A stretch of 35,336 bases of DNA from a virus, in the UHGV virus genome UHGV-0373725. The stretch is one strand, 5' to 3'. Below the pieces are notes generated by a model. It made no database searches, was not told the DNA's origin, and worked only from the letters and a program-made list of their open reading frames with translations. Positions 1,827 to 6,600 of the stretch are shown in pieces. The position numbers and the translations under genes were made by a program. Every line of letters starts with the position of its first letter. Position 1 is the first letter of the stretch.

Positions 1827-2393
1827 TCAGCGCACCTGCAGCGAACGTTCGCCAATCTCAAGGTGAGCGCCCGGCACTGGGTTTAACAGTTCTTCCGGTA
1901 TCTCTCCGCCGTCAGCGGTAATCTGGGCCGCCGCTGCCTGTGCTGATTCAATCGCTTCCTTGATGGCTTTCTTGTCCGGAGTGACTAACGTCTGAACTGT
2001 CACTAATTCATCCGGCAGTAATTCATCATTATCGATCACGACGTTTATAGCTCCCTTACGTGCGGTAAAGGTATTTTTGGCGGTTTTAACCGTATCCTGA
2101 CCGGCGGCCAGTAGACACTGGAGAACATATTTCTTCAGGTTCGTGATCTTACCTTCGAATGATTTTTTGCGGGCGGCAAGGCGTTTGGCCTCTTCATCGC
2201 AGGTTTTTGCCAGGCCTTCCAGATTGCGAACGTGGACGAAAACGGCATCCAGTTTATCGCCGAGTTGTAACTCAAGACCTTCCATTGTGTCGGCGATCAT
2301 TTCAGGAGACAGACCAGCACCGTCTTCGTTTTCCAGTAGTGCCTGGAGTTTTGACATATCGGCTGCGATAGCAATTGCAGTGGTGGAAGTCAT
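1827..2393 (-). CDS. Siphovirus Gp157-family protein (recombination-module accessory protein)
   Basis: 188 aa, acidic helical N-terminus, family-like composition; ATGA start/stop overlap with the upstream annealing-protein gene, so co-transcribed. Confidence 0.55.
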   Translation of the reverse strand: MTSTTAIAIAADMSKLQALLENEDGAGLSPEMIADTMEGLELQLGDKLDAVFVHVRNLEGLAKTCDEEAKRLAARKKSFEGKITNLKKYVLQCLLAAGQDTVKTAKNTFTARKGAINVVIDNDELLPDELVTVQTLVTPDKKAIKEAIESAQAAAAQITADGGEIPEELLNPVPGAHLEIGERSLQVR

Positions 2394-4543
2394 TATGCTT
2401 TCTCCTCGGCTTTATTCAGTTCTTTAATGCGCCCATCTTTGATGGAGATGAGTCGGCGGAGCCGGCCAGACAGATAACGTTCATGCTGCGTGTCGCCGTT
2501 GGCCTGGGCGGCTTTAATGTGAACATCGATCTCACGTGCGATAGGGGAAAACACACCGTTGATTTCGTTCACCGTCACGCCATGCGCCAGGGTATTAGCA
2601 ACGCGGCTTAATTTATCGTCAAACTCCTGGCGGAGCCGTGCTGCATCTTCGGCTGATTCGCTGGCGTTCTTCAGGTCAAACTCGGCCTTGTTCTTCTGGC
2701 GGTACTCCAGATTGTCGTAAAGCCCCATAAAGATATCGCCACTGAATCCGAGGCCGGATAACGCTTTTTTGGTCGCATCTGTCAGTGATTTTTTGGCTGC
2801 TTCGCCGTCGCAGGTGATCCCGTATTTACTACCGTAAATGTAGGGTGTACAGCCGTATGCTGTTTCCTCACCTCGTACTCCGTTCAGGATGTACCAGAGC
2901 CGGACAGTCACAACATGGTGCTGTTCGTTGACGGTATTACCATTCCCATCAAGAACCAGCTCCCACGATGCGTTGTTGTCTTTGCCTTTTACCTGCCGAG
3001 TGATCGGCGCGCCAATATCGAAACGCTCTTCAACAATATCCACGCCCCAGCCGATGCCCTTAGGGCCAAACTCACGTGTGGCAAGCATGGTCATGTAGGT
3101 ACCGTTGATCGAGGTGCCACCGCCGTTCTGTGTGAAAGCCTTAGTAAACCTTTCGTCGGTTTTAAATACGCGTTTCCAGAGGTCTAAATTGTCTTCCCCG
3201 ATAATTGGTTTTCCGACAGCCTGCACAACATCCTCAGCGTTAGGCAGGCTTTCAGCGTGAGCGATTTGTTTTGCTAAACGCTCGGAATCATCAGCCAGTT
3301 TTTCAGCCTTAACGCTTAACTTCTCTTCCGGCTCTGCACCTTCACCAGAGGCATATACGCCATAACCCATATCATTGAGCGTCTCACGCGCCTGTTTGGC
3401 CTGAGTGTCGGTTACAACCGGCTGCTGCGCTTCCACTTTTTCGCCCACGTTTGAGGCGGTATTTTGCGTCGCCTCTGGTTGTTTAACGGATCCTGTCTCG
3501 GTTTCCTCAAAGCGACCGTTGGCCGCCAGCCATGAATCGATATGGCGGCGCAGGCTGTCAGGGAAATGGTAGGTATCTTTCGCCGGTACGTTTTGTACCA
3601 CGCCGAAGATGCTGGCACGGTCGTATTTGAGTATCTGCGGCGTGGTGTGCAGCGATGCTGACCAGCGTTTAAAATCTTCCCGGTCATCGGAAATCATCTT
3701 CTTAGCGTCCAGAAGGTTTCCGGATAGTACCGGCGCATCAGGCGCCAGCGGGAGAAGGGCGGTAGCGATCTCCTGATCCAGCGTTGCATAAGTGTGTTTA
3801 TACCCGCGCTTAGAAATTACCACGGGTGTTTTATCATCGGTGCTGGTGCTGAGAGCGGTATTTTTATATACGCCGGGGGCCAGTTCGTCGCGCTTGCCCG
3901 GATTCTCAAGCCAGCGTTTAACGAACTGAGAGATAGCCGCTTTGCCCGGCGTCTGGTTTTCAAAGTGGGAGAAAATACCCTGAATAAGATTGTTCAGACC
4001 TTCCACATGCATGCTTTGAACCGGGAAGTTATTTTGCAGGGCGCACAGAACATTAAAGTTAAAGCGATCTTCCTCTTCAAATTCCCCATCGTGGTTTTTC
4101 AGATTATCCAGATAATCCACAACCTGAGAATAAAGATGGCCATCAATCGCCGCGGTGCTAAAAAGCAGGACGGCAGCAAAGCGTTCATCAGGGGAAACGG
4201 TCATCAGGTCGATCACTTCATCGTCGGCTGGTAAACCTGCACCACTTCCGGAAGCGCTATCCTGCGCAGTAGAAACCCATTTTTCACCGTCAAAAGTATG
4301 CTGCTGGGCGAATGACTCATCGAACTGGCCAACGGTCGGCAGCGGCTGGCCTTCAACGTGTTCCCACAGTTTCGGTTTGAAATAGTTGTCACCATTGGCC
4401 GGGTATGATTCCCAGAGTTTGCCGGTCATAATGCTTTCGGCCACTTTTTTGTTTGGCGCATCGATGGCGATCGCCAGCTGCACGGCGCCGCAGTCTTTAA
4501 TCGCCGATTTCTTTGGCTCAAATGAGCCGTTGTAGATGGTCAT
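2393..4543 (-). CDS. Large (716 aa) protein with a C-terminal Rad52-like single-strand annealing domain and an uncharacterised ~450-aa N-terminal region
   Basis: Residues ~470-640 show the Rad52/Sak-type pattern (FGPKGIGWG, beta-hairpin VVTVRLWYILNG, AKKSLTDATKKALSGLGFSG compared with human Rad52 ARKEAVTDGLKRALRSFG). Start set at Met12, which sits in the conserved cassette (gaggaaagaccaATGACCATC). Confidence 0.6.
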   Translation of the reverse strand: MTIYNGSFEPKKSAIKDCGAVQLAIAIDAPNKKVAESIMTGKLWESYPANGDNYFKPKLWEHVEGQPLPTVGQFDESFAQQHTFDGEKWVSTAQDSASGSGAGLPADDEVIDLMTVSPDERFAAVLLFSTAAIDGHLYSQVVDYLDNLKNHDGEFEEEDRFNFNVLCALQNNFPVQSMHVEGLNNLIQGIFSHFENQTPGKAAISQFVKRWLENPGKRDELAPGVYKNTALSTSTDDKTPVVISKRGYKHTYATLDQEIATALLPLAPDAPVLSGNLLDAKKMISDDREDFKRWSASLHTTPQILKYDRASIFGVVQNVPAKDTYHFPDSLRRHIDSWLAANGRFEETETGSVKQPEATQNTASNVGEKVEAQQPVVTDTQAKQARETLNDMGYGVYASGEGAEPEEKLSVKAEKLADDSERLAKQIAHAESLPNAEDVVQAVGKPIIGEDNLDLWKRVFKTDERFTKAFTQNGGGTSINGTYMTMLATREFGPKGIGWGVDIVEERFDIGAPITRQVKGKDNNASWELVLDGNGNTVNEQHHVVTVRLWYILNGVRGEETAYGCTPYIYGSKYGITCDGEAAKKSLTDATKKALSGLGFSGDIFMGLYDNLEYRQKNKAEFDLKNASESAEDAARLRQEFDDKLSRVANTLAHGVTVNEINGVFSPIAREIDVHIKAAQANGDTQHERYLSGRLRRLISIKDGRIKELNKAEEKA

Positions 4544-4555
4544 TGGTCTTTCCTC
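4541..4555 (-). promoter_or_regulatory. Conserved translation-initiation cassette GAGGAAAGACCAATG at the annealing-protein gene, preceded by a GGCGC-gtgacct-GCGCC hairpin
   Basis: Read directly on the minus strand. Confidence 0.6.
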
Positions 4556-4587
4556 TTGGTTACTGGCGCAGGTCACGCGCCGGTTAA

Positions 4588-4911
4588 TTAAAACGGTACG
4601 TCGCTTTCTTCAATTGGAGAGTGATCGATGCACAGCAGCTGCTGAATCTGGTCTTCAATAACACCCAGCTCCTTCTTTGCTTCGGCAGAGATTTTCTCTT
4701 TCTTCGCACGAAGGGCATTAACCTGCATACCAATAATGTCGATTGGCTCTAAAGCTGGAATGGCAACCTCTACCGTTTTGGTAGTAACGAGGACATACAG
4801 ATCAGGGTATTGCTGTGACATGTCACAGGTGAATGAGTGATAAGACGTTGGTAGATATGGTTTGGTTGTGGCCATAACGTAAATAGTTACGGGGATGGTA
4901 AGCGCTTCCAT
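4588..4911 (-). CDS. Hypothetical early protein (107 aa) with an acidic C-terminal tail ending ...IEESDVPF
   Basis: Good Shine-Dalgarno (AAGGAGtcgctATG); first gene of the leftward early operon. Confidence 0.6.
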   Translation of the reverse strand: MEALTIPVTIYVMATTKPYLPTSYHSFTCDMSQQYPDLYVLVTTKTVEVAIPALEPIDIIGMQVNALRAKKEKISAEAKKELGVIEDQIQQLLCIDHSPIEESDVPF

Positions 4912-4973
4912 AGCGACTCCTTGATGATATATACTCAGAGCCGATCAGCGGCTCTGTCGTTGGTCTTTCCTCG

Positions 4974-4995
4974 CTACAGGGTTGGTCCCCTGTAG
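4974..4995. promoter_or_regulatory. Hairpin CTACAGG-gttggtcc-CCTGTAG next to a degenerate copy of the cassette (GAGGAAAGACCAAcg, no start codon)
   Basis: 7-bp perfect stem read directly; adjacent motif at 4960-4972. Confidence 0.5.
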
Positions 4996-5029
4996 CATTC
5001 TGGGCGGTTTGGTCACTGTCCCGGGTAAA

Positions 5030-5104
5030 TTAGCCCACTTCGGTGGGCTTTTTTACGCCTGAAGGTTGCCGGTCTTTCCCGGCTGTCAGGGTGGTCAGCC
5101 CCAT
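5030..5104 (-). CDS. Possible 24-codon mini-ORF (MGLTTLTAGKDRQPSGVKKPTEVG) behind a perfect copy of the cassette
   Basis: gaggaaagaccaATG at 5102-5116 on the minus strand followed by an open frame to TAA; too short for the ORF track; could be a leader peptide or fortuitous. Confidence 0.2.
   Translation of the reverse strand: MGLTTLTAGKDRQPSGVKKPTEVG
5032..5055 (+). terminator. Strong intrinsic terminator on the plus strand (7-bp stem, UUCG tetraloop, T-run) with no plus-strand gene upstream
   Basis: AGCCCAC-ttcg-GTGGGCT followed by TTTTTT. Confidence 0.55.
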
Positions 5105-5262
5105 TGGTCTTTCCTCGTTACTGCGTGAATGCTTTAAAAAAATGCCCGGGGCGCCCGGGCCAAGACTACACACAGCAATTCGTATTCGTTGCGGTCTTTC
5201 CCGCATGTCATCGTACTGTCGGCGACCCGAAGAATTCGCGCCCGTCTTTCCGGACTGTCAGA
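5068..5262 (-). repeat. Three ~20-nt direct repeats, each a short hairpin with a GAAAGA loop (minus-strand sense) and a different but complementary stem
   Basis: Plus strand: GCCGG-TCTTTC-CCGGC (5068-5083), TGCGG-TCTTTC-CCGCA (5189-5204), CCG-TCTTTC-CGG (5244-5255); each followed by a TGTCA(G) box. Confidence 0.65.
5136..5160 (-). terminator. Intrinsic terminator for leftward transcription
   Basis: GCCCGGG-gcg-CCCGGGC stem-loop preceded on the plus strand by AAAAAAA, which is a U-run after the hairpin on the minus strand. Confidence 0.55.
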
Positions 5263-5374
5263 ACTGTTTCTGAACAACTGCCGCGTGGTTAGTGCGTCTT
5301 TGATGTGGTGAAGCATAACCAAAGGTATTTTTATTGGCAATGTTTTTTACTAACAAAAGTTAATATTAGAGGTG

Positions 5375-5420
5375 TAAAAAAAGGCAATGCATTGAAAACA
5401 TTGCCTTTAATTTATTTTTT
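5375..5420 (-). terminator. Terminator immediately downstream of the repressor gene (hairpin flanked by A-run and T-run, possibly bidirectional)
   Basis: AAGGCAATG-cattgaaaa-CATTGCCTT with flanking A7 and T-rich runs. Confidence 0.55.
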
Positions 5421-5825
5421 TGGAGTGTTTTTTTTCTTTTTTACCAAAAGTAACTCATCAAACAATCGCTGGAATCCGTCAACTTTATCTTTCAACTCAT
5501 TGATATGTCTATCTTTTTCTGATTCAGGTAGAGAATCAAAAAGATCAAGCAGTAGCTTTTGGCGATCATCTAACCGAGGTAAAAGCTCTTCTGCCTTCAA
5601 CGGTTCATCGCTATCGGTACCGTTAAGTAACCATGTCGGAGAGCAACGAAGAGCCTCAGCGAGAGAAAACAGATTTTGCCCTTTTGGGGTGTTAATACCT
5701 GCTTCCCACTTGTAAACGCTGACGCCAGATATGCCAACGGCATCGGCGAGCTGCTGTTGTGTCAAACCAAGCTCTTTCCGTCTCGATGTAATGCGATCGT
5801 TAAAGGTCAATTTTTTCATATCCAT
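5412..5825 (-). CDS. Phage repressor, XRE-family helix-turn-helix (CI / RacR-like); no LexA-type S24 peptidase domain
   Basis: 137 aa; HTH LTQQQLADAVGISGVSVYKWEAG; divergent from a Cro-like gene; no Shine-Dalgarno, TATATT immediately upstream of the ATG (possible leaderless mRNA). Confidence 0.8.
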   Translation of the reverse strand: MDMKKLTFNDRITSRRKELGLTQQQLADAVGISGVSVYKWEAGINTPKGQNLFSLAEALRCSPTWLLNGTDSDEPLKAEELLPRLDDRQKLLLDLFDSLPESEKDRHINELKDKVDGFQRLFDELLLVKKKKNTPKK

Positions 5826-5893
5826 AATATAAGTTAACTTGACATAACTTTCGTTAGTATTTATGTTCCTAACTGACGTTAGGAGAGGAAACT
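5826..5893. promoter_or_regulatory. Divergent promoter/operator region of the immunity switch
   Basis: Plus-strand -35 TTGACA (5839-5844) with a -10-like TATGTT 17 bp downstream; palindrome CCTAAC-tgac-GTTAGG (5868-5883) and a further CGTTAG half-site (5852-5857). Confidence 0.5.
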
Positions 5894-6091
5894 ATGAAGA
5901 CCGAAACTGTTATCAGATTTTTTGGAACTAAAACCGCTGTTGCGCGTGCATTAGGTATCTCTCAAGTCGCTGTAACCCGCTGGGGGACTGTTGTTCCTGA
6001 AAAGCGAGCTGCGCGACTTGAGCATGTAACCGCGGGCGCCTTGAAGTACGACCCTACTTTTTACGAAGAGCAAAACACGTCTAAAGCATAA
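5894..6091 (+). CDS. Cro-like / YdaS-like HTH regulator
   Basis: 65 aa, HTH TKTAVARALGISQVAVTRWG; first gene of the rightward operon; Shine-Dalgarno AGGAGAGG. Confidence 0.7.
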   Translation: MKTETVIRFFGTKTAVARALGISQVAVTRWGTVVPEKRAARLEHVTAGALKYDPTFYEEQNTSKA

Positions 6092-6153
6092 CTACAGGCG
6101 TTATCGAAATCTGATTACGCTTAATCAATTTTCAGCGACAGGAGACGCTCGAA

Positions 6154-6600
6154 GTGGAATACCTCGAAGAACTTAAACGAGAGATCTTTAACTGGGCAGC
6201 GGAAAGCGGGCAGGAGCTGGTTGCTATCGAGATAAGCCGCATGTGGTTTCGTCTTGGTGGTAATACCGGTTCGCTGAAGCTGCACCAGATCGAAGATGCA
6301 GATGGAAACGCCGACTGGCGGGCAATCAACAACAACCGCCAACAAATTTTTCGTTGGTTGCGAGGCGAGACCAAAGCCGCGAGAGCCAAAACTCTGGCGC
6401 TGGTCAAAGCGATGGAAGCGGCGCTGCCGGCAGAACGTTACGCGCGCTTGGGTATGTCCACCCAGTATTTAATTTGTGTGGCCATTCGTGAGTTTGCCGC
6501 GGCGATTATCGCGTTATTACTCGACGCCAGAGACGGGCCGCAGCAAGTCGCCAGAGCATTGCAAGCTATGCGAGAAACACAGCGCCTGACCAGCGTTTAA
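6154..6600 (+). CDS. CII-like / YdaT-family regulator (tentative)
   Basis: 148 aa, GTG start with CAGGAG Shine-Dalgarno; position after the Cro-like gene and motif ...FRWLRGETK... recalled from YdaT-like proteins. Confidence 0.5.
   Translation: MEYLEELKREIFNWAAESGQELVAIEISRMWFRLGGNTGSLKLHQIEDADGNADWRAINNNRQQIFRWLRGETKAARAKTLALVKAMEAALPAERYARLGMSTQYLICVAIREFAAAIIALLLDARDGPQQVARALQAMRETQRLTSV

Follow-up and report, generated by a model that had tools for sequence, protein, structure and literature searches.

In phage T7, the gene 4 helicase-primase carries an acidic C-terminal tail that resembles the tail of gp2.5, the SSB (single-stranded DNA-binding protein) of T7. This tail, which belongs to a non-SSB phage protein, ends in an aromatic residue and serves to dock onto a protein that binds the SSB tail as well, is the nearest precedent known to us for the protein we describe here, the 107-amino acid (aa) product of a gene located at positions 4588-4911, on the minus strand, of the virus genome UHGV-0373725 (35,336 nucleotides, hereafter called the window). 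The two cases differ in that both the T7 tail and its partner are phage replisome proteins, whereas here the tip of the host SSB seems to be copied on a small protein of a recombination module.

The SSB of E. coli ends in the tip MDFDDDIPF (PMC6393309; the motif is also quoted in PMC5872125). The corresponding C-terminal (SSB-Ct) peptide WMDFDDDIPF binds ExoI at 98 nM and the phage annealing protein Red-beta at about 11 uM, and the F177A substitution abolishes binding (PMC6393309). Likewise, for Sak4, another phage annealing protein, the final six residues of its SSB (NDYPPF) are required (PMC5928155). Other described systems are comparable in their genomic position. Arf and Abc1 of phage P22 are small accessory recombination proteins encoded in or at the head of a phage recombination (Rec) module, and Arf is moreover acidic and encoded directly upstream of the annealing gene erf. 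However, neither has an SSB-like end (Arf ends in ...FAGYYS), and a profile of our family run with filters off against P22 Arf, Abc1, Abc2 and Kil scored at most 4.5 bits, that is, no homology. Lambda Gam and other small anti-RecBCD proteins are also small, acidic, helix-rich and encoded with recombination genes; we did not find the Gam fold or sequence in the 107-aa protein. Finally, in the literature searched, no phage protein other than an SSB was described as mimicking the host SSB tip, which is weak evidence given that subscription journals were thinly covered, and a search on YdfE did not turn up such a protein either. If real, this would be a kind of host-motif mimicry that the phage papers searched do not describe.

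The open reading frame (ORF) of the 107-aa protein, for which the sequence-only reading had given no strand, is real and runs on the minus strand from an ATG at 4909-4911 to a TAA at 4588-4590. Its full translation is MEALTIPVTIYVMATTKPYLPTSYHSFTCDMSQQYPDLYVLVTTKTVEVAIPALEPIDIIGMQVNALRAKKEKISAEAKKELGVIEDQIQQLLCIDHSPIEESDVPF, with the C-terminus ...IDHSPIEESDVPF (also given as ...LLCIDHSPIEESDVPF). Residues 96-107, DHSPIEESDVPF (4591-4626, minus strand), form a flexible acidic extension ending in an SSB-tip-like D-V-P-F-COOH. Within the last seven codons, E E S D V P F (4591-4611), the tail matches SSB-Ct at several positions: Phe at position 0, Pro at -1, an aliphatic residue at -2, Asp at -3 and Glu at -5 and -6. 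As in SSB, the motif occupies the extreme C-terminus and follows a flexible linker, F107 standing directly before the TAA and thus offering an aromatic last residue with a free carboxylate; unlike in SSB, the linker is only about 12 residues long. The sequence-only reading had likened this end to the acidic tail of SSB. The terminal DVPF does match the tip, whereas the acidic stretch turned out to be modest, with three acidic residues among the last seven compared with four in the E. coli tip, and with a Ser at -4.

We found this end to be strongly conserved. Every full-length, unframeshifted protein among 69 homologues ends in [DE][IVLF]P[FY], down to 46% identity, and in an alignment of 30 sequences P106 is invariant while F107 is Phe in 28 and Tyr in two. 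At the level of loci, a tail of the form [DE][IVLA]P[FY] is present in 90 of the 92 that carry the gene, the exceptions being the distant phages ZF40 and VvAW1. The acidic run at -3 to -6, which reads D, S, E, E here, is DADE, DEDE or DDD in relatives. Among 40 distinct tail DNA sequences the last residue is Phe in 39 and Tyr in one, and -2 is occupied by I, V, L or A. Synonymous variation is seen at each of the 14 terminal codon positions (Pro as CCA, CCG, CCT or CCC; Phe as TTT or TTC; Asp as GAT or GAC; Ile/Val as eight codons), and yet 39 of the 40 distinct tails retain Pro and Phe. Since codon choice drifts whereas the residues stay, selection acts on the peptide and not on the DNA. An overlapping DNA feature, considered in view of the roughly 44 nt between the stop of the gene and the start of the next, was rejected as the cause of this conservation, both on account of the synonymous variation and because some prophages keep the tail even though an extra gene of 92-94 aa has been inserted after the small gene. 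Based on these findings, we conclude that the tail is under protein-level selection. The sequence-only reading had named homologues without the acidic C-terminal motif as what would refute it; the comparison did not refute it, and tips recur in distant branches of the family as well.

Some individual loci deserve mention. The inserted genes of 92-94 aa (6329-6607 in L003; 5271-5555 in L001), which lie between the small gene and the annealing gene, are unrelated to each other in sequence and mark a variable slot in the module. In one IMG/VR locus (among L010-L089) the tail reads ...IDHTPVQESDISF, with Ser replacing the otherwise invariant Pro at -1. A Pro-to-Ser change at this position of E. 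coli SSB corresponds to the ssb113 defect, and the variant may represent a sequencing error or a loss-of-function allele. One assembly encodes a 176-aa fusion (P0063), in which the small protein reaches as far as ...CIDHT and continues into the annealing protein's C-terminal end, presumably through an internal deletion of the module.

The 107-aa protein belongs to phrog_2479, a large uncharacterised phage family, whose profile it matches over its full length (residues 1-107 on positions 1-107, E 2e-53). Pfam and NCBIfam scans of the protein gave no match, and two family profiles searched against PDB sequences returned coiled-coil noise only, at E 0.27 or worse. When 1.84 billion cluster representatives were searched with a profile, 504 relatives reached E 0.001 or better. 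Their length was 90-115 aa in nearly every case, and the ten distant relatives that we checked all match phrog_2479. An end of the form [DE].?[IVLFMA]P[FY] is present in 24 of 133 usable representatives (18%, a figure that may be inflated because these were drawn from a list of 150 ordered by how closely they resemble a profile that had itself been made from tailed proteins). From composition, such an end has a chance of about 2.6e-4 per protein, so that about 0.03 would be expected (binomial P about 1e-60). One of the tailed proteins, ending in ...APRQSTPSDDDIPF, carries the E. coli SSB hexapeptide DDDIPF exactly; other ends are ...QQAGSDDDGLPF (DDDGLPF), ...DFDIEEDDFPF, ...DSGEFDEIPF, ...KFLDDDGVPF and ...KDDEDDGFPF. 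The extension after the helix has a median length of 14.5 aa and is net acidic in tailed members, compared with 7 aa in tail-less ones, which form the majority and end a few residues past ...CIEHKPE. For many tailed proteins the nearest neighbour by core alone is tail-less. On a core-only tree built with the unweighted pair group method with arithmetic mean (UPGMA), at least 13 state changes are needed, compared with a mean of 21 when labels are shuffled; the tail is thus clustered and yet gained or lost several times, although the count itself is rough, coming as it does from a UPGMA tree of short, divergent sequences. Altogether, the family is strongly enriched in the tail, which behaves in a modular way and is associated with recombination genes. 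Since most members of the wider family do not have it, it is an add-on to a core with its own function and not the whole function of the protein.

The core is predicted with high confidence. An AlphaFold2 (AF2) model based on a 129-sequence alignment has an overall predicted local distance difference test (pLDDT) score of 93.5. Residues 4-51 (4759-4902, minus strand; pLDDT 91-98) form a beta-meander with strands at 4-15, 24-27 and 39-51 and, by column conservation, a conserved D30-M-S32 loop. Residues 56-93 (4633-4746, minus strand) form a long helix of 38 residues that ends in the signature IQQLLCI (IQxLLCIE in the family); I89, L92 and L67 are conserved in at least 90% of the 129 sequences. 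The heptad-like hydrophobic pattern of this helix probably marks an oligomerisation or coiled-coil element. We also considered IQQLLCI as a clamp-binding motif and rejected it by inspection. Towards the C-terminal end the model is less confident (pLDDT 82, then 74), with a short helical turn at 102-104.

The model also bears on the start of the gene. Many NCBI records contain only a 77-aa version starting at Met31 (4819-4821), which drops two conserved strands of the predicted fold. Since residues 1-30 are conserved down to 46% identity and are strand-forming in the AF2 model, the 107-aa form is the right one. Its start is sound, as a strong Shine-Dalgarno sequence, AAGGAG (4917-4922, minus strand, read from the sequence), lies 5 nt upstream of the ATG.

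The genomic context links the family to recombination. In 89 of the 92 loci, the small gene lies upstream of an annealing gene on the same strand, and the same order is found in Serratia and Enterobacter prophages, Pectobacterium phage ZF40 and Vibrio phage VvAW1. In the window, the sequence-only reading had placed the gene first in a recombination operon, and it is indeed the first ORF after a cI-like repressor and directly upstream of a putative Rad52-type annealing gene. Across the family, the phage recombination modules headed by these proteins are of four types. Besides the annealing-gene arrangement, tailed members ending in DDDIPF and DDDGLPF neighbour an exonuclease and a Sak4-like AAA_24 protein (L096 and L099), and one ending in DDGFPF neighbours HNH and NinB/Orf genes (L098). 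A member with no tail precedes an Erf-YqaJ-SSB cluster (L102). Another tailed member (L100) has no clear recombination neighbour. With such varied neighbours, the link is to recombination modules generally and not to one recombinase family.

In L102 the tail-less member lies upstream of genes for Erf, YqaJ and a canonical SSB (PF00436; 942-3357), and we saw no recognisable SSB gene near the tailed loci examined. Whether tail presence tracks the absence of a phage SSB is a relationship that a single tail-less locus with an SSB gene is too little to judge. In prophages of Pseudomonas and Yersinia, unrelated small genes instead precede some of the stand-alone Rad52-like genes. One small gene (L095, 1332-1619), just upstream of a stand-alone Rad52-like gene, encodes an unrelated 95-aa protein ending in EADDDGVPL. 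We considered it as a second case of an SSB-like tip and regard it as a weak parallel at best: DDDG[VI]PL occurs in six of 120 homologues, its last residue is Leu, and the remaining homologues finish with short acidic stretches, for example KESEE.

Considering the above results, we propose, at a probability of about one half, that the 107-aa protein is a recombination accessory protein whose tip docks it into SSB-tip pockets. In this model, the core common to phrog_2479 at the head of recombination clusters, a beta-meander followed by a long and probably oligomerising helix, would bear here and in scattered branches a flexible acidic extension whose end, [DE]-aliphatic-Pro-Phe/Tyr-COOH, copies the SSB tip. 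The tip would insert into a pocket of the SSB-tip type, in which a hydrophobic hole would take the Phe and basic residues would take the carboxylate and the acidic residues. The owner of the pocket may be the phage annealing protein or a host SSB-interacting enzyme (such as ExoI, RecQ, RecJ, RecO or PriA). Docking would tether the accessory protein to the pocket owners, or make it compete with SSB for them, at single-stranded DNA (ssDNA) intermediates, and end processing would be biased toward the single-strand-annealing recombination of the phage. Binding to SSB-tip pockets, the identity of the target and the choice between recruiting and blocking are all what we infer from the tail and its context. 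For the tail, three alternatives may be proposed from the sequences: it may recruit host enzymes, it may block a host enzyme, with ExoI as the obvious candidate, or it may engage the phage annealing protein.

Several points weigh against this proposal. The Ser at -4 makes the tail a weaker match than DDDIPF. Some relatives end in Tyr, and a terminal Tyr is, to our knowledge, unusual for SSBs. The possible inflation of the tail count and the roughness of the gain/loss count, both noted above, reduce what the family-wide comparison can carry. Above all, about 80% of the representatives have no tail, and therefore the core must function independently of it.

A broader and more tentative idea is that phages have repeatedly grafted the host SSB tip onto a small oligomeric recombination protein, turning it into an inhibitor or hijacker of the SSB hub; this would act, for example, by blocking SSB-stimulated ExoI or by diverting RecQ, RecJ, RecO or PriA. 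Another reading, which we consider doubtful, is that the protein is a pure decoy, with an oligomer displaying several SSB-like tips and soaking up one host enzyme, so that recombination intermediates are protected or host DNA transactions are shut off. The likeliest target would be ExoI, since annealing proteins need the 3' ssDNA tails that this enzyme degrades. ExoI also binds SSB-Ct most tightly, at 98 nM compared with micromolar values for other partners (PMC6393309), and a mutation of xonA (ExoI) is reported to enhance RecET-mediated assembly (PMC13048471). The acidic character of the 107-aa protein, a long helix suited to oligomerisation and the first position in the operon, and hence early expression, would all fit a decoy. 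Nevertheless, a decoy needs only a scaffold and a tail, and yet the core is kept in hundreds of tail-less relatives at the same genomic position. A core conserved without the tail must bind something of its own, which makes a two-handed adaptor somewhat more economical than a bare decoy.

It is unlikely, in our view, that the tail serves only the phage's own annealing protein, as it would if the 107-aa protein were a cognate mediator presenting an SSB-like tip to the Rad52-type protein, for instance to load the latter onto SSB-coated ssDNA or to release it from there, leaving host enzymes untouched. The near-universal adjacency to an annealing gene agrees with such a role, as does the finding that SSB tips are bound by phage annealing proteins with dissimilar folds (Red-beta, PMC6393309; Sak4, PMC5928155), and we found no SSB gene among the scanned ORFs of the early region of this phage. 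On the other hand, the tail-less members of ZF40 and VvAW1 pair with the same annealing domain, and tailed members occur with unrelated recombinases (Sak4-like, NinB/Orf). The presence of the tail is therefore not tied to a single partner family.

The remaining two explanations are weaker than docking into SSB-tip pockets. One, which we hold to be improbable, is that the 107-aa protein is a compact ssDNA-binding protein with a non-OB (oligonucleotide/oligosaccharide-binding) fold, a functional SSB analogue whose tail acts as an SSB tail. Lambdoid recombination modules commonly contain SSB genes (PMC12315714), non-homologous SSBs exist, such as the HK620 'SSB-2' ending in NDYPPF (PMC12315714; PMC5928155), and the beta domain contains several aromatic residues. 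Against this, unlike the bacterial SSB family (PF00436), the 107-aa protein has no OB fold, its net charge is -7 (family median -6, beta domain median -4), and the tail-less relative of L102 sits in a module that already holds a canonical SSB. The scaffold is thus unlikely to bind DNA, and the sequence-only reading was right in that the protein is not an SSB: it shows no OB fold and is acidic overall, although it carries an SSB-type tail. Least probable of all is that the end is a different C-terminal signal (a degron, a motif binding the beta clamp, or an intramolecular contact) whose likeness to SSB is coincidental, since, for all that short C-terminal motifs are degenerate and that the tail shows intermediate rather than very low AF2 confidence with a short helical turn at 102-104, independent branches converge on letter-for-letter SSB tips (DDDIPF, DDDGLPF, DEIPF) behind variable linkers, the sequence has no match to the beta-clamp motif QL[SD]LF, and the association with recombination genes fits SSB biology.

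The annealing gene next to the 107-aa gene encodes a 727-aa, RecE-N-like protein (2393-4576, minus strand; phrog_2489, RecE similarity and Rad52_Rad22 matches) with a putative C-terminal Rad52-type annealing domain at residues 459-652 (2621-3202). The phrog_2489 alignment begins at residue 12, and the true start of this ORF is likely the ATG at 4541-4543 (Met12). PHROGs and GenBank label the protein 'exonuclease' or 'phage-associated endonuclease'. We did not detect a nuclease domain in it, the similarity of its residues 175-373 is to the middle portion of RecE outside the nuclease, and the gene is mislabelled as an exonuclease. Residues 459-652 match stand-alone proteins of about 240 aa, including VvAW1 gp29 (42% identity, E 4e-42). 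The Pfam family Rad52_Rad22 was matched at E 0.1 or better by 21 of 31 homologues of the domain; P0268, which is 41% identical to the domain of the window, scored 28.3 bits over profile positions 23-139, above the curated cut-off of 20.3. By comparison, the 727-aa protein itself scored only 13.7 bits, below that cut-off, and a profile search against PDB sequences found nothing, so that the assignment to Rad52 is a transitive one.

A 2025 survey of lambdoid Rec modules described 'RecE-2' proteins, which do not have a nuclease domain and whose role was given as unknown (PMC12315714). The 727-aa protein is similar to these in resembling the non-nuclease part of RecE and in having no detected nuclease domain; it differs in that its C-terminal domain can be assigned to the Rad52 annealing family. 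Our comparison further suggests that ZF40, listed in the same survey as having no annealing protein (PMC12315714), does have one.

The third conserved member of the module is a Sipho_Gp157 gene (1827-2393, minus strand; Pfam PF05565, E 8e-35; phrog_253), which PHROGs labels 'Mu Gam-like end protection' and which is kept in all contexts seen. The same-strand order after the 107-aa gene is thus the 727-aa ORF, the Sipho_Gp157 gene, a DUF4224 excisionase-like gene and the integrase. On the other side, the cI-like helix-turn-helix (HTH) repressor (5412-5825, minus strand; Pfam HTH_3, E 4.6e-16) marks the start of the early-left region, an arrangement shared with homologous prophages, and the 107-aa gene is the first ORF past it after a gap of about 500 bp. 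This gap (4912-5411) contains no convincing ORF. It has a promoter-like site on the minus strand (5340-5312) and terminator-like hairpins on the minus (5160-5144) and plus (5032-5049) strands. A scan of 4000-6300 against Rfam gave sub-threshold matches only: an RprA-like one at 5134-5235 on the minus strand (43 bits, cut-off 70) and an isrB-like one at 4969-5053 on the plus strand. This gap may contain a leader or else a small RNA.

The window represents a temperate phage of the Klebsiella/Raoultella/Enterobacter type. The records nearest to it are two phages (91% identity) that were deposited under Stenotrophomonas, and an E. coli prophage beside tRNA-Leu. The two phages, OM816834.1 (L002) and OM816835.1, are the sole phage-database records with the module and were deposited as phages of Stenotrophomonas maltophilia. 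This host assignment looks doubtful, since the other close relatives all come from Klebsiella, Raoultella, Enterobacter or E. coli prophages.

The C-terminal tip of SSB is a hub that organises many bacterial replication, repair and recombination enzymes, and synthetic mimetics of it are pursued as antibacterials (PMC10143822; PMC5872125). For the tail described here the evolutionary signal is strong, and the function is what we infer. If true, such a natural mimic, tuned by evolution and carried on a non-SSB scaffold, would reveal how phages make use of the SSB hub, and the tail variants DVPF, DIPF, ELPY, DDDIPF and DDGFPF would provide a ready set for probing the specificity of its pockets. 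It could also account for some of the dependence on the host that phage annealing proteins show in recombineering. Together with the re-annotation of the neighbouring 'exonuclease' as a putative Rad52-type annealing protein, these findings give a first handle on phrog_2479, a large unannotated family.
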